From: Tubulanus polymorphus
Taxonomy: Eukaryota > Animalia > Nemertea
Assembly (NCBI RefSeq): GCF_964204645.1
Contig: NC_134027.1
Location: 7,720,485-7,784,484, forward strand
Direction: 5' to 3'
Length of the DNA: 64,000 nucleotides
Shown here: positions 241-63,627 of the stretch, piece by piece
Layout of the letters: each line of letters begins with the position of its first letter
Numbering within the stretch: the first letter of the stretch is position 1
The notes under the pieces: generated by a model
What the model was told of the DNA's origin: nothing
What the model saw: only the letters and a program-made list of their open reading frames with translations
Databases searched by the model: none
Position numbers and translations under genes: made by a program

Positions 241-3200
241 GATCACGCCTGGTTGGAACTGATAAATGACACGCGTAAAGAAGATGGTCACACGTTGGTG
301 ACGCAGGAAATGTTCGAAACTCTCATGGACCGATTCGAAAAGGAAGCTTTCTTCCACAGTCAATCTTCCGGCAATGATATGACTCCGTCAATTGACGAGG
401 ACGCCGTCTGCAGTATTTGTATGGATGGCGAGTGTCAAAACAGTAATGTCATATTATTTTGTGACATGTGCAATTTAGCGGTGCACCAGGAGTGCTACGG
501 TGTGCCGTACATACCCGAAGGACAATGGTTGTGTAGACGTTGCCTTCAGTCTCCGTCGACGGCTGTTGATTGTTCGCTTTGCCCGAATAAAGGTGGCGCT
601 TTTAAACAGACGGACGATGGTCACTGGGCGCACGTGGTTTGTGCTTTGTGGATACCGGAGGTCGGCTTCGCGAACACTGTGTTTCTGGAGCCGATTGACA
701 GCATCGATCACATTCCAGCCGCGCGGTGGAAATTGTCGTGTTATATTTGTAAACAACGCGGCACGGGAGCGTGTATTCAGTGTCATAAAACGAACTGTTA
801 CACTGCGTTCCACGTGACGTGCGCTCAACAAGCCGGGTTGTATATGAAAATAGAGCCGGTACGCGAGACGGGGATCGGCGGCACGAGTTTCACCGTGCGT
901 AAAACGGCGTTCTGCGACGTACACGCTCCCGCCGACCATCACAACTCGAGCGACAACACGAGCATGCTCGTCAATTCGGAGGAGCAGGCGAATCTGGCGA
1001 AACGGGCGAAAGCAATATCGAGACAGAAAATGAGAAAGGCGAGAAAGATTTTGGCTGAAAAGCGCAACGCGATGCCGATAGTATCTATACCAGTTATACC
1101 GCAACAGAGGTTTGTACTAGTATTAGTAGGAATAAAAGAACTAACTTGAGAGTTTATTGATGCCTTGAAAAATAACACATAACAATAAAGGCATTTTGGA
1201 TTTGAATGTATCAATGATTAAAATGCATTCACCAGCCAGTTCACAATTGTGATCGTTATTTTGAGAAGCCAATATTGATAATGTAGCGCACATCGACTCA
1301 CACAGAACCCCTTAGATAACACCTACTAGGTATTAATCTATATGAACATTATTGAACATTTTACGGCATCAAAAATAGCTATTTGAAAAATAATGGTTTA
1401 GTGAATCTTACCTATATAGTCCTCTTGTTCCTCCAAGTCATATTGTATATACCGGTGAATGATTTTGCATTTGTAGGCTGGCTAAGATAGCGTCAAGAAT
1501 CGTGTTGCAGAGAAAAAATCAGTTTATCGGACATTTACAGAGTTATTGGACATTAAAACGACAATCGAGGAATGGCGTACCGCTACTCAGACGCTTACAA
1601 TCAAATCATATGTCTCGTCATAGGGATCAGGTATTCCAGTCACCCAATTCCAATTATAGAACCCATTTTCATTGAAGTCAACTGACTCTCCTCAGAAAAC
1701 TATTTCAACTTTGTTTTAAATGTTTGACGTATTTGTTTTGATTCAAGACCCAGAATGACAAAGAAAGCGATGCGCTGAAAGATCAGTTGAAATATTGGCA
1801 ACGACTGCGACAAGACTTAGAAAAAGCTCGTTTACTCGTCGAACTGATCAGGAAACGTGAGAAAATGAAAAGAGAACAGGTGAGTTACACGCGATAATCC
1901 TAGAGTGGCATAACTTGTATGGCTTGATATGACCACTTTGATTCATGTCATTCATATTGCATTTAGGTGCGGATCATTCAGATGAATACTGAGATGCAGT
2001 TGCAGCCATTCAATGTATTATTGAGGAAAACATTGGATCAACTTCAAGAGAAAGATATTGGAAATATATTCGCTGAGCCAGTCAATGGAGATGAGGTATG
2101 TCATACTGAATAATCAATAACAGTAGCTCACTGTTTTGCTCTCCAACCAGATGGCAGGCCTTGTGTTATGTAAATCTTGGAAGCGTTCATCTTATTCCTG
2201 ATTTCTTATTAGAAGAATGTTATATTGTCATATTAGAAGAATATTATATTCTCATAATCGTTATTCAATTCAGGTGCCAGATTATTACAGTTATATAAAG
2301 AATCCGATGGATTTTTTGACGATGAGACAAAAGGTCAATGGTCATCAGTATAAGTCGATCGATGCCTTCGAAGCCGATTTTGATTTGACGATCAATAACT
2401 GTATGAAATACAACGCGAAAGATACAGTATTCTATCGGGCAGCAGTTCGTCTACGAGATCAGGTATAATGCCATTCAGTTGACTGAGATAAAGCCACAAT
2501 CTTCTGAAAATGTATTTCTTCAAAAATGTCTCCAAGAACAAGTTATTACAAAATCTTTGACCTGGCTTTAAAAAAACCATCAATTACTTTAATCATATTG
2601 TTTATTGAATCTTCTATGTTGTATACATGTTTCACCAGTGATGATTTATTGTGTTTGGCTTGTAGGGTGGTGCTATTATTCGATCCATGAGACGTACTGC
2701 GGAACAGGTTGGCTATGACATGGAGACTGGATTGCATTTAAAAGATCGACCGAAACTTGAAAGAGAACCAATCGCGACACTCGAAGACAGTAAGTTTATT
2801 TTGTGATTGTCTACTGCAACTGATAGATCAGTTGTAAGATGAATGTAATTCTATATGAATATGTAAAGAAACTACTGGTTATTTTGAAATGTGAATTGCT
2901 TTTCCAGTTGACAGCTTTTTGCCTCCGGATGTAAGAGCAGATATGCCGTTGGAAGAACAATTACGAATTCTGCTCGATAAAATGGACATCGCGAATTCAC
3001 AACCAGGTAATGGTTCAACGATGAATAATCAAATCAATTGCTATTGAAGGCAATGTTTTATTCTTCGGTTTGTTAATCCTGATCGTCGCCATCTAGCTAT
3101 CTATATGCATCTTTGAATTATAAATTTAGGCAAGAAATCTCGTTTAGCAAAACAGATCAAACGTGAAATAGTGAAGGTACGACGTCAGTTAGCTTTACAG

Positions 3201-6200
3201 AAAGGCTCGGCTACCCAAGCTGATCTTGATGGGAGTACAGGTCAGTCTTTATGAAATGAGGTATTATGTTGCTTGTTTTATTATTCAACAAGTTTGTTTC
3301 TGTATGGTCTTTAGTGTCAGATACTGAGAAAGACAGTGCAACCCCACGAACGCCTGTAAAAACAAAATATGGAAGACTGACCAAAACGCCGCGATCAGCT
3401 ATGAAACGAGGTGATCGTGATAGTTCGACAACACCTCCAAGAACAGTCGGAAGAGGTCGTAAACGAGGTCGTAAGCCGAGGTCATCAGTCAGCGAGTTAC
3501 CAGTTGAACAAATAGAGGAGGCTAACACAGAGGAAATAGGTATTTTTTTCATAGACCAAATACACACTTCACAAAATTGTTTATGTATCTATAGTATGTA
3601 TTCGGTATAGTTATCGTTGGCATAAAAATTTAGATATGTTTCACTTCGAATCAAAGCGTTGATATTTTAGTTTCAGAAGATAAGAAGCCTGAGCCAGCTA
3701 CGCCTCAAAAATCATCAACTGGGCTAAACTCAGAGAGGAGCACATCGTGTGCCTCGCCCTCCGGTGTCAATCGACGTACCGCTGTACTATTTAGTAAGAA
3801 AGCCTACCACCAGACTAAACTTAATCTCACATCGACAAACACTAGTTCTACTCCCGTTCGAAAGGGCCCAGGACGACCGCCGAAAATCCGACCTTCGCCT
3901 GTGGTACTGGCCGCGCCAGAAGACACGATCAAGGAGGAATCGGAAAAGGAAGAAGAGCCCAAACCTGTGAATGAAACGTCGGAAGATGTTGCGAAACTGG
4001 CGGCGATTTCGGCGAAACCTGGTCGCGGGAGAAAACGTTCCGCGAGCGTGTTACACGTCGAAACTGATTTAAATCCGGCGAAAAAACCGGCGCTCGGTTC
4101 TCCGACTCCAAAATCGCCGAAACCGTCTGTCTCCACGTCTCCGAAATCACCGAAACCGGTCGCTGTAGCTACACCGGTGGTGCCGACGAAAATCTGTTCG
4201 AAATCGGTGAAAACCCCACGTTCGCCAGGACCGACGTCGAGTCCGCGACATCACAGTACTCCGATGACCGAATGCGGCGATATCGCGTTTCCTCCAGCGG
4301 GAGCCGAGCATCCGGAGAGTTTCATGCGCTATAGAATCGATCACTCCATGAGTAGTTGCGACGATTCGACATCGTGTTCAGAGACGGAGAACACTGACTC
4401 GTCGGATTGCGAAAGTTGTTGTTCGGGAAGCAGCATCGGCGGCGACGACGACAAATCGGCGCGATTCTCGCAGCGAGGCAGACACAGTATGTATCACACA
4501 GCTTATCTATCACATGATCTGTGTATTTACTATTCGCTGAGCTATTATCACTAATCTTCATTTATTGTGCTGTGCGTTATTCCCATCAATCAGTTATTTA
4601 TTATCGTATATACTCTTTATATTCATAGATATTTTTTCATTGAAATTCTTTATATCCGTGTCTGTACAGTTAGCTTGATTCCCCGCATGACATCGTCAGG
4701 AAAATCGTTTTTCAATAATGAATGCTCCTCCCAGTGCTTTCTCGCTAGTGCTCATACGATTCATTACCGTATGTGGAACATACTATAGCTGCTGAACATT
4801 GGAAACTAACTAAATTATTTTCTTTAATTCTGAACTAAGAATAATAGGTGATATTCATTATGACAATGAACACTTATTACCGTATAGTATTACTACATGT
4901 ATAAGAATACTTAACTGAAATTACATCCAAAATGTCATTCTGTTTGTACCTGTTGTTCAGCGGCCAGTATCATTGTTTCGATCATCAGTTCAAACATATT
5001 TGCACGCATAAATATATATATATATATATATACTGTGTATCTGTTTGATTATTTTCATCCCTCCGTCTGCAACAAATGCCTGAGTTGTTTTCCACGCAAC
5101 TCTTGTCTTTCTCTCTAGCATGTGGCTGTCGTGTGTATTATTGAATGGTATTATGCATTTTAGAAAAGAAAAAACGTGACAACTTTGGCTCCGCGTCTTA
5201 CCCTATATTCGAAGGCGATGAAAATAGCAATGGAAATGTCGACGCCGATGGCGGCCCCGTTTTGCGACCGGCATTTTTACGCCAAGGTGAGATAGAGCGA
5301 GACCAGGTGAAACTTGATCTCATCCAGCACCGAACACACTGAGCATAGTTGTATACTGTCACCCCTCGGTATATCTCATATTGCTCCTCTTTCTCAATAA
5401 GCAATAGAAGCTATCTCGCAAACTATTTTGAGAAAGACAAAGCGCTAGAACTAACATCGTACTTACAAAATACCCTAATGTCTTATCTCCAAAGTTGGGA
5501 AGATGAAAACAGGATTTACAGGCCCCTGCTTTATACCCTGCTTTTTCCATGTATCACTGATATGCTTTTAATCCTTATGTGTATGTGTAGTTATTCTTGT
5601 TTGATGTGCCTGCCAATACATTTCAAACTTAATTTTGTTTCGCTTAACGCTTGTGCTTTTGGAGCTTCGGTTTTAGAACATGTACAATGTACCTTTAGAT
5701 GTATAAGTCAGGCTATAACATAGGAGCAATGTTTGTTCTCACACTCTAGATCATTGAAATTTGGTGGTGGTGAATGTGTGTGTAAAAGTCCATGTTATTT
5801 AGCCACCAATGTTGTTTGATGGAATGATAGCTGAGTTTTTCTCTAAACTATAGCAAGTGTCTATAATTGAGATAGTATACACCATAGTGATATGCACGTT
5901 AATGGTGTAGTGTTGGTCCTCTATTCATCAAAACATTATCTGTAGTTTGTTTTCGTTGAGTTGGTGGCTCATATACCGGAGAGATCGGAAAGGAAACTTC
6001 ACGAAACTAATGTGTCCTAAACATTTTTTCCATGAACAGGTGATTCATCCTCAACAGAAGAGGGATCATACGAGATAAATAAATCTATCATCATTAAACA
6101 TAATCCAAACGATATAAGAAATTATCTGTGTTCAAAGCCCGTGTCAAAAAATGTTTTGACCAAAACCAATCGTATATTGTCTCGAAAGCGAAAGTCTGCA

Positions 6201-45600: not shown

Positions 45601-48600
45601 AGTATCGTTAATTTCAATCTAGTCGTTTGTCGTCCCCCCATTCCTTACCTCCTGCCGAGGGATAAATTCAATTTCGTTTACATCCGCTTTTATGGTTCCT
45701 TATATCATTATTCATAGTGAAGTGGGCTAAGCTTTAGAGATGGTAGTAGTAAAGACATGTGATTTTTGCTACTATCGTATTAGGAAACGTTGGCCCTATC
45801 TTAGCAATAACGACTGTACAGTTAGTTCACAGATACTAACTACGGTCCGTTATTCGCTACTCAATATGGAAATGCGCATGACACTTATCAATAGGCATAC
45901 TTCTTATCAGCGTTGTGGATATACATGGAAACTAATCATTCTGGTCAAGTTGAACGTTGTTACTGGGATCCTGCGCTACCGAGAGGAGGTTCCTCCATTG
46001 ATTTCTCGCATCGGTTTCGCAATATATACATGCAATGCGACATAATTAACTGTATCTTGATGACCGAGCTATGGGATATATATGTTCACCACTGGTCATC
46101 AATTTGGTACCAGAATTGCATTGAATATTTTGCCGCGAAGGCTGCGTCTCAGTTATCAGTCAGACCCTCTGTCACTTCTCTGCTTTCTCAATGTCAACTG
46201 AAGGCTTTGTCCTGTATCAGTTTTCTCTCTCTCTCTATGCCAGAGAATTGAGGCACTCGGTGACAAGCGTGCGTAGAACTGAAGATGAATTTCAGAATGT
46301 AGTTTCCGTCATTGAAAACGAAGTGTATAGCGAGGTCTCTGACAACAAGTGATTACTACTAGTTAAACATACAGTTGGATATGAGATTGACGGTGTAAAA
46401 TGGAAATGTATTTAAAGTTTATCGATTAAAAATATGATTCAGGATGAAAATCAATTCAGTCAAAACAACTCCCAAGACAAGGATTAGTGTCACTTTCAAG
46501 GTTTCAACTAAACCGTCACCAGTCAGCTGGCCTAGTTTAAGGTCACCAGTTTCGTCAAAGAACCTACATTAGATAATGTGCACCCTAGTGAATGAACTAC
46601 GGTAATCATAGTTGCCATCCTAACATACAATACAATTAGTATTAATGAAAACAATTGAAGACAGAATTTTCAGTTTTATTAAAGGATGTTTAAGTACAAT
46701 AGAATTTATAGCCACCATCCTAATTTTATTCATTCACTCCGTTCATCGTCGAATTTTGTTGTTTGATTTGATTTTTTAACTGTTCGATTTCGAGAGTCAG
46801 TTTGTCTCGTTCTAACGCCTTTTTCTCCTTTTCGATCAGTTGTTTGTCCCTCTCGATTTCCAGTATGTGTTTCTGTAGCGCGAATAATTCTCTCTGTTGC
46901 TGCCGTCTCTCCTCAGTATTCTCCTCGAATTCGCTCGACCTCGGCGGAGACAGCGCCGTCATCGAATTTTTCAGATTAACCAGCGGGTTTAAAGCTCTGT
47001 TTCGCGAAGACTTGTCGCCGAATGTCGACAACATCGTACCGACACGCGATTCTTCGGTGACCTTGACATCGGGTTCGCTAGCGGCCTTGAACTTTTTATT
47101 GGGCGGCCATAAGTCGTCGTCGTTAACTTGTATTTCGACGTCGGCTTTTTCGTACGGGGTCATTTCGTTGTCCGTCTCGGATCTCATATTCAGGAATTGT
47201 TGTTGATTGTAGATTAAATCTTTCAATACGGGGAACTTCTGCGAAATCTTCGTCGTCGGGTAAGACGAAGGCGTATCCGGCGCCATGTCGTCGAACGAGC
47301 CGTCGTTGATGCTTTCGACGTCGGAAAATTCAGCCGTCGAGTATGCGGCTGCGGCCGCGGTGGCGGCGCCGGACTGTGCCGACCCGATCATTGGTTGTTT
47401 CGACTGCGGTGGTGTCGAACTCGGCTGCATGCTCATCGGCGCGAACACGTTCTGATCGGATTCCATTTCGGTCGTGTCGATGTCTTCGTTGATCGCTTCA
47501 TTTTCGATCATTTCGGCGGTATCGTCGTCGTCGTCTTCGTCGTCCTCGTCGTCGTCCATCGGTTCGCGTTTGATTCGCGCGTCGTCGCGGTTGATCATTT
47601 TCATGTAGCGTTTTCCGACCATGCCGGCGTTGATGATTTTCAGCGAGGTCGCCGACAGCTGCCGGGTCGGGTATTCGCCGGTCGTCAGCGCTTTTTGATA
47701 CGAGACGAGTTCTCGTCGAGCCGTGTGCAGCAGGTTCTTCCATTTTCTGCGTACGTCGCCGATGCAACGTTTCACGCCCGGATTATGTTTATTCAACACG
47801 ACGCTGATTCCGTACCAAACGGCGTGCTTGCGACTGTTCACTTGTCCGTTAACCTGCTTGTTCAATATGATACCTTTCTGTTTGATCACCTGGTCGACGA
47901 CGTACATGTTTTCGCGATCGGTGAAATTCGGCTTGCGTTTAATCCACTCCATCGTGCCCTGATCGACGACGGCGGGCGGCATGTAACCGTAATTCGTTAA
48001 CGACTCGGCTTCCATTACACCTCGATTATCCATAGTTAATTGAGAGTTAATTGCCTAGCGTTGATTAATCCGGTTCAATCTAAATCCGACTGAAGAACTA
48101 TTTACGCGTTTCAGTTTATATCTAAATAATTCATTTTAATCCGTCGAAATCCGAGCACGAATTCGTCGCTAAGTTATTCGGTACTATAATGAAACAAGTT
48201 TTCATGCCAGAGTCTTCACACACTATTATAAGTCTTATTTATGGACGATATCGCGATATCCTCTCTCCTAATTCTCATCAAATATATAATTTGTCATCAT
48301 TCGGTAATTCTCCGATCCGTAATATTATATCCTTCACACATCTGTCATAATTCGGTGTAGATTTATAACGATGAATAATTTTTCTACGACTCGGTTTCTT
48401 ATATCTGATGTCTGCGTGTGAAAAGCATTACAGCATAGGAGTGAACACTCTAGCTAGCTGAATGTGGTCTGAGCTATGTCTAGTGTAGTTAAACCTCGGA
48501 TAAAGCTTAGTTTGTATCTCAGCCAATAGAATTGTGCGTGCGCTGAGTCGATCAATAAAGTAATGCTACAAGCAAAATATAGCCTAGGTTTATAGGTCAG

Positions 48601-58190: not shown

Positions 58191-61100
58191 TCAATGAAAT
58201 TCGGTATGGTCGACCGGGATCAGCGCCGACATTGAATTACTTCGACGCGTTCTAGTTCTACTGCTGTTTATACTCTGAGTCCGCGCGAATATAGATCGTA
58301 ATTGAGGTTCCACATCGCCTAATAGAGGGCGCTTTATCGGATCACCATGCCAACATGCTGACATCATTTCCCAACATTCATCATCGAATTGTTTTAATTT
58401 TTCTGGACGAACTCCTGAAAAGCACAGATAAAACACTTTCATTTTTTTGGAACTGTTCTCCTTCAAAGGCTCACTACTCAAGAAAAGTCTGAGGTCACAC
58501 TAAGATCTCATGTCACACTGTGAGGTTGAATCCCCATTTCAGTCAGGTCCCACTCAGGTGACCTAAGTAAGATCTCATGTCCCACTGTGAGGTTGAGTCA
58601 CCATTTCAGTCAGGTCCCACTCAGGTGACCTGAGACGGTCTCAGGTATACTCAGGTCACCTAAGATCCACCTGCTCTGAGAAATGCTTGGTCTTGTGACA
58701 GCACAAAATGGTGCTGTCTATGTCGCTAATTGCAAAAAATCTGATGATCGGGCCGAATCCTATGTGAGTAAGGCATAAAGGATGTATATTTAGTTGCACA
58801 GAGGCATAGAATGTTTGTTCACCTTTTTTAACCGATGTCCACAGCATATCTTTACTTGTGCATTGTTCGTAGGCGTATGGCAACCTGACATGTCCAGCGC
58901 AGACGTACCAGAATAGTATACCGAACGCGTACACATCGACGCTACTGTCGTATTTACCAGTGAATAATTCTGGAGCCATGTGAATCGGTGTTCCTACTAT
59001 ACTACCGCTCATCATTGCTTCTGGTTTACAAAATCCTAAATCGGTGATTTTTCCGCGATTTCGTTTATCCAGCTGCAATGACAAAGAATACATATACCGA
59101 CCTCGTATAGTTAGAATTCATTCGCATTTTCAGCTTCTGATTGCTAAGACTTACCAGCACATTCTTTAGTTTGATATCTCTGTGAACAAGGCCTTGACTA
59201 TGCAGGAATCGAATACCTTCCACAACATCTATAGCAACTTGTAACCTGTTCAAATCAAAATAATGCATATTCAAATTTAAATGAAGAGTACAGACTCAGT
59301 TACCATTAAGCTAAGTACAAAGATCATGAACTAAAATTGTTTGTTTAGCTAAGCGTGCTTCATTCAGATCACTGTAATTATGATTTTTACATTATCATCA
59401 TGATAATCAACAAAACTATTCTCATAAACCATATATGATTTGGATCAATTGGTACCACATGCTCTTTTAAGGCACATTAGTGAAAAACTTATCTTTATAC
59501 GAGTCTTTTAAAAACATAACAACAGATGAATACTTCTTGTCGAGTTAAATTAATGATAATGTTCAGCAAATTTTCTTAAAGCGCTAAATTGATAATTAAC
59601 ATACATGTATGACAAATAAATCTGATAACAACTGATGATTCAGCTTTTTTCAAATTCTGGCACCACCACCTGACGTGAACACTAGACCACCGTCTCTAAA
59701 TACCAGGACACCATCAAACAGGGGTAGAGAGGATATTTTTACTAAGACATGTGAATAATTGGTTGAGTAAACTAATGCTTTTAATGGAAATCCTTAACTA
59801 TGAGAAACCCCATCCGATAGATCAATAATTTTGTGAATCCAATCATCTTTTTTTGGAAAAACTTTGAAACAAGAAACAAAACGAAAAAAGAGACAGGAGA
59901 GTACACTATATTCTTTCATCTGGCTCGACACAAACAATATTACCTTCCAGGCCAGTGTAGCCCCCGGATAATGGCTTGTTGTAAATCACCTTGCATCAGG
60001 TCAGTTATAAGAAGAACTTCAGGGCTGTAGCCATCACCGTAGTCGTAATTGATGGCCGCACCGTGAATAGGGACAACCCGTTCGTGGGGAGGAAGATTCC
60101 TGTAAAATTGGCGCAAATCTGATCAGTGATTGATGCTTGTTATGAACACGAGGGGGCGCTGGTGTAGGTGAGTGTCCGATAGAGTTCATGTAACTTACAT
60201 TGTATAAGCTTGTCAAAGCCACGTGTCAAAAATTGCGTTAAAAAAAACACTGGGTTTAATGAACTCATCAAAAACAACAAATGTTGAAGTGAGCCTGATG
60301 CAAATTCAATAATTTTCAACCAGTGGCACTTGGGAATCCAAGCTTACCCATATTGTGTTACATGAACTCAAAGCAGGTACATGATAGTAGTCATATATAG
60401 GGCTGTGAATAATCAACACGCTGATCGTGAGTGGTGCAGGCGGGTGGTGTCCTATAATGCATGTGCCTGAAATAGAAAATTAACACCGACCAGCCAGCCA
60501 GGTCATCCCGTCGCTTACAGGTCGACATTCACGCTTACCTACTCGGCCAATCAAGTCCAGTCTTGATGGCCGTATATAAATCTCGTTGGGCTCGCGGCAT
60601 GATGAGCAATACAGCAGGTGACGAGCCTCCGCCGTACGAATAATCAATCACCGAACCGAATATCGTAACTAATCTCTCATGTTCTGGAACATTCCTGGGT
60701 ACAATATAACAATGAGGTTCAATAGTGGAACATCCATAAAGTGTATATGTATCAACTGAATTCTACCCCATTAGGAGTAGTTTTCAGCCATGCCTTAGCA
60801 ATGGTACATATTTTCCAGACCCATAGTGTACCTATTTTATGGATGGTCCCTAGGGCATCAAAATACAAGGTAAAACAGAGCCAAAGAAATTATTACATAA
60901 TGCATTGCTCAACTTTGAATAATAGCAGTCTCAGTCCTTTTTTGTTGGTAAACTAAAATCTATAATTTCGATAGAAATGCCTAAAATTTACGTTTACAAG
61001 TATGTCCACCAAGTACTCAAAATCTAAGCATCACAACTGCAATAAAATATAAACATATGAAATACATCTGAAAAGATTTAGTATTACATGTGGGTTCCAG

Positions 61101-63627
61101 ATAAGCTCTTCAATAGCATAGATCGTGAAAATACAGTGTAGATCTCAAAATGATCAGCACCATGCAGGAAACAATAGATAAACTGGCAATAATAACTGTC
61201 TGACTGTTTGAACTTGATTTACATGACAGTTCTCAATTGAATCCAACGTCCATTCATCAGTTCTGTGACAGCTGCACACTCACTAACCCACTCAATAAAT
61301 ATCTATCCAGATGATTTACTGTTTTCTTTCATTTATATGAAGTACAGGTGAAACAGTACGGATCATTCCATTTCCATTAGACAACCGTGATTACAGCTTT
61401 TTAATGGGCTATGGAAATGAAACGACCATCAAGAACTACAGTCTACTTTTCTCCCAATATCGGTCAATTGATGAGTAAATAGTTAACCGAGATATGTATT
61501 TCATATCCAAGCTGAACAGAGACCCGAGTTAGGCTAGGTTTACTTTTTGGTGAATTGTTACAGGTAAAATATTTGTCCCAGACAAACTGAATTAATTATC
61601 AGAAATGGTGACTGTGTTTTGAAAGTGACTTGAATAGATAATGGCTAGTGATATGATGATATCAGGGAAAAAATTCAAGTTTGAATTATCAGTATAAGCT
61701 AGTAAACAAACTACATGCTACAGAAGGGGTATTAGCCGCGTTCCCACTAGATTCGGCACTTATGAAGTACCATACTTCGCTAGTGCCTAATTCAACAAAA
61801 TACAGCGCTTCCACAGCTAGTTACGTTGACATGTAGAGTCGGCAATTCGACACTTAGTAAGCCCAGTATACTAGTCACCCGGTGTGCCGAGGGGAGTGAA
61901 ATCAGTGTTGAGTGTATTGTACTACAAAGATGTAAATACACAGCTAGCTAAGCACCGAATCTGCATTCACAATACAGAAAATACGCGGCCAGCTCAGTTC
62001 CGTACTGAGATTGCGTTTAATAAGCCTCGTATTTCAATACGGAACTGAATAAGCCGCGAATAGGCCTCGAATAATTTTTCAAGTGTGAATGCGTAATACC
62101 GTCCTGAAATCCTAGTGCGAACGCAGCTATTGACGTACACAAAGCTTCTTGAATAATTGATAAAGAAAAATGCTCTATCAACAGGCAGGCTGTAAGCCTA
62201 TAGAACTGAAAATCTAGAAAAGAGATGCTTTTTCAGAAGGATGCAGCAATTTCTGAAATTCAAATTAATTTCATTAGTTCAGCATTAACTCCATACACAT
62301 GGCAGGCCATAAGTTAACTTTTTTTGTTAAATGAAACAACTAACCCTTTCAGTGTGTCTACACCGTAGAGCAGTGTGTAAATCGGTGATGGACTTAGCTA
62401 ATACACCACGGTCAATTGACCATTAGCTGCATCGCAGTTTAGATGCACTATAGCGGTATGCCCATTATACAACGCACTGGGACAGAATCCTCCAAAATTT
62501 TCAAATCATCTCCAGCACTTAAGGGTAAGAATCAGTCAGCACTGAAAGGGTTGGTTGAACTGCTGGAATAACTTTACAAGAACAGGTTAACAAACACAAT
62601 ACAAACCAATTTGTTTATCCAGAGTTCTCAATACTGTTATACATAAGAATAAGATATCAGATTGAATGATTTATGATGTCGCCAGGTTAACCTTAAGTTT
62701 TAAAACAAGCAACATAAATGAAGCCGCAAGTTATTTAATACAGTTCATAGATAGGCAATATATGTTTGCAGCATTAAGAACTTGATAAACTTGTAATTGT
62801 ACTTCTCTAAAGTCAATAAAAATGTGAACAAGTGAACTAGAAAAGTTGAGCTCAGCACTTAGGTTCATGGCGTTGTTCAAAAATGACATGTGGCAATTTT
62901 CTAGTTTGGTTTCTTTAAGAACAAGACTTACTTTGTATAATAGAATTCTAATGCGAGATCGTTCCAGTGTTTGTCGTCGGGTGGTACAACCGATTTGATG
63001 GCGCACGGAGAATGTCCTGCCCAGTTTTCGCATGAATACACCACGCCATACTGTCCTCGACCGATTTCCCGCCCCATCTGTGGCATACCTATAAGAGACA
63101 AAAAAAATGAATTAAGTACGACATTTGATTGAATCTAACTAAATGTCATGCAGGATTTATGAATATTTCCATCATGAAAAGGTAACAGACAGGTTCTGAA
63201 ATCAAAAGAACTACTTACCAAACATGATCATATCTTTAAGCGAAACACTTTCCAGAGCCATCCTAGCTACGAGTGGTGCGTGTACTTTCCGCACACGTAG
63301 TCGTTGTTCTTCAGTTTTTTCGAGACGACCGGAATGACGCGCTTCAAGTTGACGCAGAGCGGTGGCGAACGCTTCATGCGAATTCTTCAATCGCTCTTTG
63401 ATCTGAACACATATACTCTTTGCTAATCTGTAATGAATATGTGATGATATAATAGACATAAGGGTTAAAATAATAATCCAGGTCCCAGTTTGAGTATGAT
63501 TGAGCTGCAAAGAAACCTGTTGGTCTTACTTTGTTTCACTGAGACTGCTGATCATATCACAAGCCACTGTTTTCTTCCATTCTCGGTCAATTTTTGGCGG
63601 CGTATTCCAAGGCATTGATTGAACGAG
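58191..63627 (-). CDS. DSTYK: Dual serine/threonine and tyrosine protein kinase, 5'-partial, spliced
   Basis: Exons (minus) 63627-63530, 63427-63219, 63088-62932 ([37 protein letters not shown]), 60694-60539 or 60099-59944, 59245-59155 ([13 protein letters not shown]), 59072-58823 ([35 protein letters not shown] signature), 58414-58191 ([13 protein letters not shown], stop). Confidence 0.95.
58501..58632. repeat. Tandem duplication of an about 66-bp unit in a DSTYK intron
   Basis: TAAGATCTCATGTC.CACTGTGAGGTTGA.TC.CCATTTCAGTCAGGTCCCACTCAGGTGACCT occurs twice. Confidence 0.9.
59944..60099 (-). CDS. DSTYK duplicated kinase exon, variant copy ([52 protein letters not shown])
   Basis: 156 nt, phase 2-2, acceptor TTTTACAG, donor AAG|GTAATA, no stops, aligns without gaps to 60539-60694. 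Confidence 0.85.
60539..60694 (-). CDS. DSTYK duplicated kinase exon, canonical copy ([52 protein letters not shown])
   Basis: 156 nt, phase 2-2, acceptor TTGTACCCAG, donor TAG|GTAAGC; matches the DSTYK motif GSVIDYxYGGGSS.AVLLIM. Confidence 0.9.
61734..62128. mobile_element. Harbinger-like MITE with internal hairpin
   Basis: AGCCGCGTTCCCACTAG ... CTAGTGCGAACGCAGCT termini; internal inverted arms TCAGTTCCGTA / TACGGAACTGA. Confidence 0.6.
62342..62552. mobile_element. piggyBac-like MITE remnant
   Basis: AACCCTTTCAGTG ... CACTGAAAGGGTT, 13-bp perfect inverted termini; TTAA sites degenerate. Confidence 0.55.

Follow-up and report, generated by a model that had tools for sequence, protein, structure and literature searches.

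A tandem exon pair conserved in two nemertean classes rewrites the gatekeeper, the hinge and neighbouring invariant residues of the kinase DSTYK

The window analysed here, a stretch of 64,000 nt from the ribbon worm Tubulanus polymorphus, carries on its minus strand a kinase gene in which two adjacent exons both encode the segment with the gatekeeper and the hinge, and the question arises what the second copy could mean for the protein. From its sequence, the gene can be assigned to T. polymorphus DSTYK, as it encodes an orthologous kinase domain together with a long N-terminal region and is 100% identical to a RefSeq DSTYK-like entry, with the translations of both exons matching the RefSeq T. 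polymorphus DSTYK isoforms completely. A total of 857 relatives were found at E ≤ 1e-40 and, among the matches listed, all those bearing a function name are called DSTYK. The isoform containing only the first of the two exons (exon A) shows 74-85% identity over the kinase region to the single-copy DSTYKs listed, which range from cnidarians to vertebrates. The parts of the gene that matter for the following are:

63219..63427, minus strand: DSTYK coding exon just upstream of the kinase domain (tblastn with RefSeq X1; joint 63085/63216 in a contig of sequencing run X3)
62932..63088, minus strand: upstream constitutive kinase exon with G-loop, beta3 Lys and alphaC (joint 60693/62931 to exon A in run X3)
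60539..60694, minus strand: exon A, the canonical copy, with alphaC-beta4 loop, beta4, beta5, Met gatekeeper, hinge and alphaD (joined to the upstream exon in run X3; alignments)
60100..60538, minus strand: A-B intron of 439 nt (branch-point-like motifs, among them CTGAT some 24 nt ahead of the AG)
60182-60212/60339-60369, minus strand: imperfect 31-nt inverted repeat in the A-B intron (sequence)
59944..60099, minus strand: exon B, the diverged tandem copy with a Thr gatekeeper (RefSeq X1, X2, X4, X5, X7 and X8; homology to Lineus B)
59650..59695, minus strand: short terminal exon that RefSeq X8 uses as an alternative after B, cutting the kinase off ahead of the catalytic loop (database model only)
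59155..59245, minus strand: downstream constitutive exon with alphaE and the catalytic loop HRDIKLKN (tblastn; joint 59072/59155 in run X3)
58823..59072, minus strand: kinase exon with DLG, activation segment, APE and alphaF (tblastn; joints in run X3)
58191..58414, minus strand: coding part of the last coding exon (tblastn; joint 58413/58822 in run X3)

A high-depth, MITE-like repeat with nested inverted repeats (about 61720-62140 of the window) lies in the long intron that precedes exon A, and the last DSTYK intron contains two 67-nt tandem copies of 94% identity (58501-58634). Neighbouring genes in the window encode an EPL1/PHD-finger protein (241-1149, plus strand), presumably BRPF-like, and, in a single long open frame, a Myb/SANT-like DNA-binding protein (46726-48054, minus strand).

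Exons A (60694-60539) and B (60099-59944) are each 156 nt long, are preceded by AG and followed by GT (GTAAGC and GTAATA, respectively), share the phase 2-2 and are open in the reading frame of the flanking kinase exons. The introns from the upstream exon to A, from A to B and from B to the downstream exon measure 2237, 439 and 698 nt. Both copies align without gaps, with identity at 28 of 51 residues and 85 of 156 nucleotides; by codon position, 32, 36 and 14 of 51 sites agree, and with a pS of 0.86 and a pN of 0.34 the synonymous sites are saturated. We are thus dealing with adjacent homologous exons of one gene that have equal phase and similar length. The original prediction, which had been made from the letters of the window, had described two open and diverged exons with intact splice sites and had proposed that they arose by tandem duplication, and both the coordinates and the gapless homology agree with this. 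It had further argued that a frame kept despite such divergence points to selection. When random mutations were introduced into A until it reached the nucleotide divergence between A and B, frame and splice dinucleotides remained intact in 31 of 5000 runs and at least 28 identical residues were retained in none of the 5000 (mean 13), which, together with an orthologous B exon in Lineus longissimus, bears the argument out; because Lineus keeps that exon, the case for selection on B is now much stronger.

With regard to what the second copy changes, the residue after VLL[IVM] is encoded by ATG (Met, 60600-60598) in A and by ACT (Thr, 60005-60003) in B. That this residue is the gatekeeper, as originally predicted from its position, is corroborated by the DSTYK profile alignment and by a structure model of the isoform containing only B. 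In the profile alignment, the Met registers with the Met of IYIVMEL in Fes, LVMEYM in RIPK1 and FFVMEYL in PKC theta, all of which we take to be gatekeepers; a single phmmer alignment to IRAK4 gives a different register. Our comparison set consisted of 116 proteins (the 120 listed of the 857 matches minus four nemertean rows), and in these other DSTYK proteins the residue is Met in 115 cases and Ser in one, while the B copies of both worms carry Thr or Ser (Thr in Tubulanus). The predicted swap hence stands, but it is not the whole of the change, as B also alters four DSTYK-invariant residues that had been missed: S14A, D17N, A27E and R34L (segment numbering) are the same in both B copies and affect positions that are invariant in all 116 DSTYKs listed. 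D19, D22 and Y24 are likewise common to both B copies and rare elsewhere, so that A14, N17, D19, D22, Y24, E27 and L34 are the distinctive residues of Tubulanus exon B. The Tyr/His of alphaD is replaced by Gln/Glu in the B copies, and the hinge of B (T-D-L-M-Q-G-D-L) follows a pattern like that of p38 alpha (T-H-L-M-G-A-D-L). The shell and spine positions remain hydrophobic in B, and alphaD still starts with Asp-Leu. For their part, the A copies of both nemerteans show a rare Pro after the gatekeeper.

Small gatekeepers also occur in A-type DSTYK segments, namely Ser or Thr in the cluster P0255 (the bee Ptiloglossa), in P0016 (the ostracod Cyprideis), in P0229 and in P0254, where they would have been fixed independently. 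The Ser gatekeepers in the single-segment DSTYKs of the ostracod and the bee cluster had escaped the original prediction. In numbers, Ser or Thr is found in A-type DSTYKs in one of the 116 listed proteins and in three of 103 matches to a B profile, and because A-type DSTYKs show these residues as well, the gatekeeper change alone need not be the one that was selected.

Lineus longissimus, which was found with a raised score in a search by the A-form kinase region, belongs to the Pilidiophora, while Tubulanus belongs to the Palaeonemertea, i.e., the two worms represent separate nemertean classes, whose split probably dates to the early Palaeozoic; a published date for it was not found in our literature search. 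Between the two species, A and A agree at 46 of 51 residues and B and B at 31 of 51, compared with 24-28 of 51 for A-B pairs. Since the A-A and B-B likeness lies above that of A and B, the pair is orthologous and the duplication is older than the split between the two classes, so that both copies have been conserved over the long term in Palaeonemertea and Pilidiophora. In the same comparison, the C-lobe is identical at 138 of 156 and the N-terminal region at 432 of 629 positions, and B (61%) thus appears less constrained than A (90%), the C-lobe or the N-terminal region. Exon B nevertheless keeps its exact length, its core hydrophobic positions, the Asp-Leu and the Gly positions in both worms and in unnamed B-type sequences.

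Outside the nemerteans, an adjacent second copy of the segment was found in none of the 116 other DSTYK proteins among the matches listed. The database protein P0010 (Strigamia, 1669 aa) contains a tandem of two DSTYK-like units, of which the second has a degenerate catalytic loop (HRN); it probably represents two fused gene models. A profile built from the two B exons gave 107 matches over 1.84 billion representatives, and four of these (the unnamed ORF clusters P0167, P0204, P0216 and P0223) are closer to B than to A. The four are genomic-looking ORFs with the same exon ends and a Ser gatekeeper, and they share the His, Asn-Tyr-Asp-Tyr, Pro-Glu and Asp-Leu-Glu marks with B, so B may be more widespread. 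Within the group of P0204, P0216 and P0223 the exon is 95-98% identical and the flanks differ; B-type exon translations with a Ser gatekeeper also occur in the unnamed Logan/ENA ORFs P0270-P0275. In a tree of 34 rows, five B-type rows lie on one side of a branch supported at 100/97, to be read with the caveats that the alignment is short (51 columns) and that two of the five rows sit on a very long branch (2.06); the stem branch of B is itself long (0.54). A search with the B profile for longer proteins, in which 7994 candidates were scored, yielded five proteins, which belong only to Tubulanus, Lineus and two unnamed ORFs, and the 294 matches obtained when JGI metagenomes were scanned for B-type patterns included no relatives. 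We kept 80 out of 92 metagenomic DSTYK loci; in 24 of the 80, many of them from closely related animals, the exon is present along with both introns and both neighbouring exons. None of these 80 animal DSTYK loci has a B-type exon, and B is therefore not general in animals. One of them, an unrelated animal locus (L002), carries, upstream of the complete DSTYK exon, a second, partial copy (4955-5047) that covers its first 31 codons and is nearly identical to them.

How the two exons are used can be approached through annotated isoforms and through contigs of sequencing runs. RefSeq lists eight predicted isoforms for T. polymorphus (XP_074645322-29), with both exons in X1, X2, X5 and X8 (4/8), A only in X3 and X6, and B only in X4 and X7. 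The four predicted isoforms of Lineus longissimus (XP_064632294-97) comprise both exons in X1 and X2, A only in X3 and B only in X4. Predicted models with A only and with B only are hence present in both species, and both exons stand together in six of the twelve. The annotation of both worms thus already models the two exons in all three combinations; it differs from the present account in that the exon homology, the gatekeeper change and the conservation pass unremarked and in that the models are predicted. The original prediction had held co-inclusion to be unlikely because it would insert 52 aa into the kinase core, an argument that finds no support in these six models and in a predicted A+B structure in which the kinase fold survives. 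Because half of the models carry both exons, the exclusion of one exon by the other may be leaky or absent.

Among the contigs of sequencing run X3, four spliced joints fall into the gene, and one of them links the upstream exon to A (60693/62931), i.e., the junction 62932-60694, one of those that had been proposed for a check. It is the sole spliced junction observed at the A/B site. No joint of this run touches B, which has no cover in X3, one contig reads through from exon A into the A-B intron, and an A-to-B junction does not occur among the contigs of X3, whose coverage omits B. Among the other runs covered, which make four of the six listed, X4 and X5 contain no joints and look like DNA, and X6 contributes no sequence to the gene; an A-to-B junction occurs in none of the four, which does not speak against the splicing of B. 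From the database models we infer that A-only and B-only mRNAs are both made, with A likely being the default and B a regulated alternative, and some A+B transcripts probably also form.

If the exons exclude each other, some mechanism has to enforce this. Steric hindrance was rejected in view of the A-B intron, whose 439 nt are presumably far too many for it, and nonsense decay was rejected since both exons preserve the frame. Scans for intron-intron duplexes, in which observed and shuffled sequences were treated with different step sizes, gave nothing convincing. A stretch of exon A (60643-60659) is complementary to the region of the B branch point (60118-60134) and could form a helix of 12 pairs. 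This complementarity was identified post hoc, and the controls are mixed, with two passed and two failed: helices at least as good arise in 9 of 1422 window segments and in 32 of 1000 synonymous recodings, but 8 of 60 controls are at least its equal in energy, and within the folded region the two stretches pair with a probability of about 0.07. Pairing of exon A over the branch point of B is hence a weak lead as an exclusion mechanism.

The structure models bear on whether a kinase containing B could work. For the B-only form, the model reaches a pLDDT of 83 (74-83 over five models) and a pTM of 0.84, exon B contributes two strands (74-80 and 90-96) and a helix (102-107) with the Thr as residue 95, and the similarity to solved kinases corresponds to a TM of about 0.7-0.75. 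The Pkinase score of the B-only form (126.1 bits) compares with 124.1 for A-only, and the G-loop, beta3 Lys, alphaC Glu, HRD, DxG and APE, all of which lie outside the exon, are intact, so that by sequence and predicted fold the B isoform would be an active kinase. A PDB search for DSTYK gave no close solved structure, with BMX as the best match (E 1.5e-19), and phmmer with the B-only protein gave no PDB match at E 1e-20. The A+B model has a mean pLDDT of 76 (53-76 over five models) and keeps the kinase fold by using A, followed after alphaD by an insert of low confidence (residues 112-150, pLDDT <50); it is biased because 59 of the 61 alignment rows are single-copy. Co-inclusion would accordingly not be obviously lethal in the model, the extra segment entering at the alphaD-alphaE linker. 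The accessible text of Meharena et al. (PMC3797032) describes a shell of three residues, the gatekeeper among them, by which the regulatory spine is supported, and reports that bulky hydrophobic gatekeeper substitutions raise activity. Going by their positions, two of the shell residues (the gatekeeper and the one two places ahead of it) lie in the exon, and the third probably does so too; the shell positions other than the gatekeeper are hydrophobic in B.

From our point of view, the probable explanation is that in a regulated subset of transcripts B replaces A, giving a kinase that would be active, with an enlarged back pocket and an altered beta4-beta5/alphaD surface, and would likely show lower basal activity. 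The duplication, the orthology and the residue changes are observed, the substitution comes from database models, and the biochemistry is deduced. In this history, a symmetric 156-nt exon unit was duplicated before the split of Tubulanus and Lineus, and B fixed a small polar gatekeeper together with S14A, D17N, A27E and R34L. Splicing would then substitute B for A and produce a second, differently tuned DSTYK that is predicted to be active. According to what is known of kinases, the smaller gatekeeper would open the back pocket and leave the regulatory spine less supported, so that the B form may have a lower basal activity or depend more strongly on activation, and the changed beta4-beta5 hairpin and alphaD may alter contacts to partners or substrates. 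A bolder version, namely an ancient, tissue-regulated splice switch of the whole gatekeeper-hinge-shell module between Met and Thr/Ser forms of DSTYK, with a conserved docking surface of its own, a distribution beyond ribbon worms and exclusion via pairing of exon A over the branch point of B, seems doubtful to us.

Other roles for B can be imagined. If B were mainly a cassette exon spliced in after A, the Met gatekeeper would be kept and B would form a 52-residue insert between alphaD and alphaE that could serve as an off switch or as a module for docking or regulation. The six A+B models from both species fit this, the 439-nt intron and the frame-preserving exons leave co-inclusion unblocked, and the A+B model folds as a kinase using A, with its low-confidence residues inserted in a linker that is also the site of KIT/PDGFR-type kinase inserts. 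Yet B keeps the exact length and core positions of a part that folds inside the kinase core, both species have B-only models, the confidence of the A+B model falls below that of the B-only model (76 against 83), and RefSeq often models both exons of known exclusive pairs together, all of which makes a cassette role unlikely. Equally, the B-only isoform could be made and be catalytically crippled, serving as a scaffold or as a dominant-negative form, for which one could cite the changes at four positions invariant in 116 of 116 DSTYKs and at the Tyr/His of alphaD as well as the long stem branch of B. We consider such a loss of activity rather improbable, as the catalytic motifs are shared by both forms, the shell-type positions of B are hydrophobic, its Pfam Pkinase score is not lower, and bee and ostracod have single-segment DSTYKs with a Ser gatekeeper. 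Finally, B evolves faster than A and the joints of run X3, where B is uncovered, include none into it, as might be expected of a rarely spliced and decaying leftover of the duplication; against this, its frame is open, its splice sites are intact, the synonymous sites are saturated, and another nemertean class has an orthologue that shares its derived residues, so that it can hardly be one.

Alternative splicing of kinase segments has precedents, among them probably the catalytic subunits of Aplysia PKA. Substitution of tandem duplicated exons is known for the human kinases FYN (FynB/FynT), MAPK8 (JNK1) and MAPK14 (p38 alpha), as described in the available parts of PMC8373072, PMC9741552 and PMC8746764. 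As in the DSTYK pair, these cases involve ancient, adjacent and homologous exons of equal or nearly equal length inside the kinase domain, with one segment differing between the isoforms. Unlike the DSTYK pair, FYN swaps the region from the SH2-kinase linker through the G-loop, and MAPK8 and MAPK14 swap segments of the C-lobe, so that, as far as the same excerpts go, none of the three covers beta4-beta5, the gatekeeper and the hinge. For FYN, exclusion and tissue specificity are documented in these excerpts, whereas for the DSTYK pair the substitution is inferred from RefSeq models. The original statement that no such pair is known in vertebrate DSTYK is in line with the accessible part of the human tandem-exon catalogue, in which DSTYK does not occur (PMC8373072), and the retrieved portion of PMC7954323 contains no case in a protein-kinase hinge. 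A published report of a DSTYK exon pair or of a spliced gatekeeper swap was not found in a literature that consisted mostly of non-subscription sources. The kind of pair is thus already known, and its location at the gatekeeper and hinge of DSTYK is apparently unreported.

Overall, the tandem pair of A and B is real, conserved and apparently undescribed, and what it rewrites is the gatekeeper and hinge of DSTYK together with neighbouring invariant residues. DSTYK is a poorly understood kinase, which has been tied to human urinary-tract malformation and to the spastic paraparesis SPG23 (PMC10492769; further background in PMC9573974, both in their accessible parts). The gatekeeper and the hinge set the shape of the ATP pocket, the inhibitor sensitivity and part of the basal activity of a kinase, and they are usually altered by mutation. 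In the present gene, splicing likely does the switching, and two nemertean classes have kept both states. Exon B can further be seen as a natural experiment which points to S14, D17, A27 and R34 as DSTYK-invariant residues that can be substituted together. As such, the pair suggests a testable route to what the changed surface of this kinase binds.
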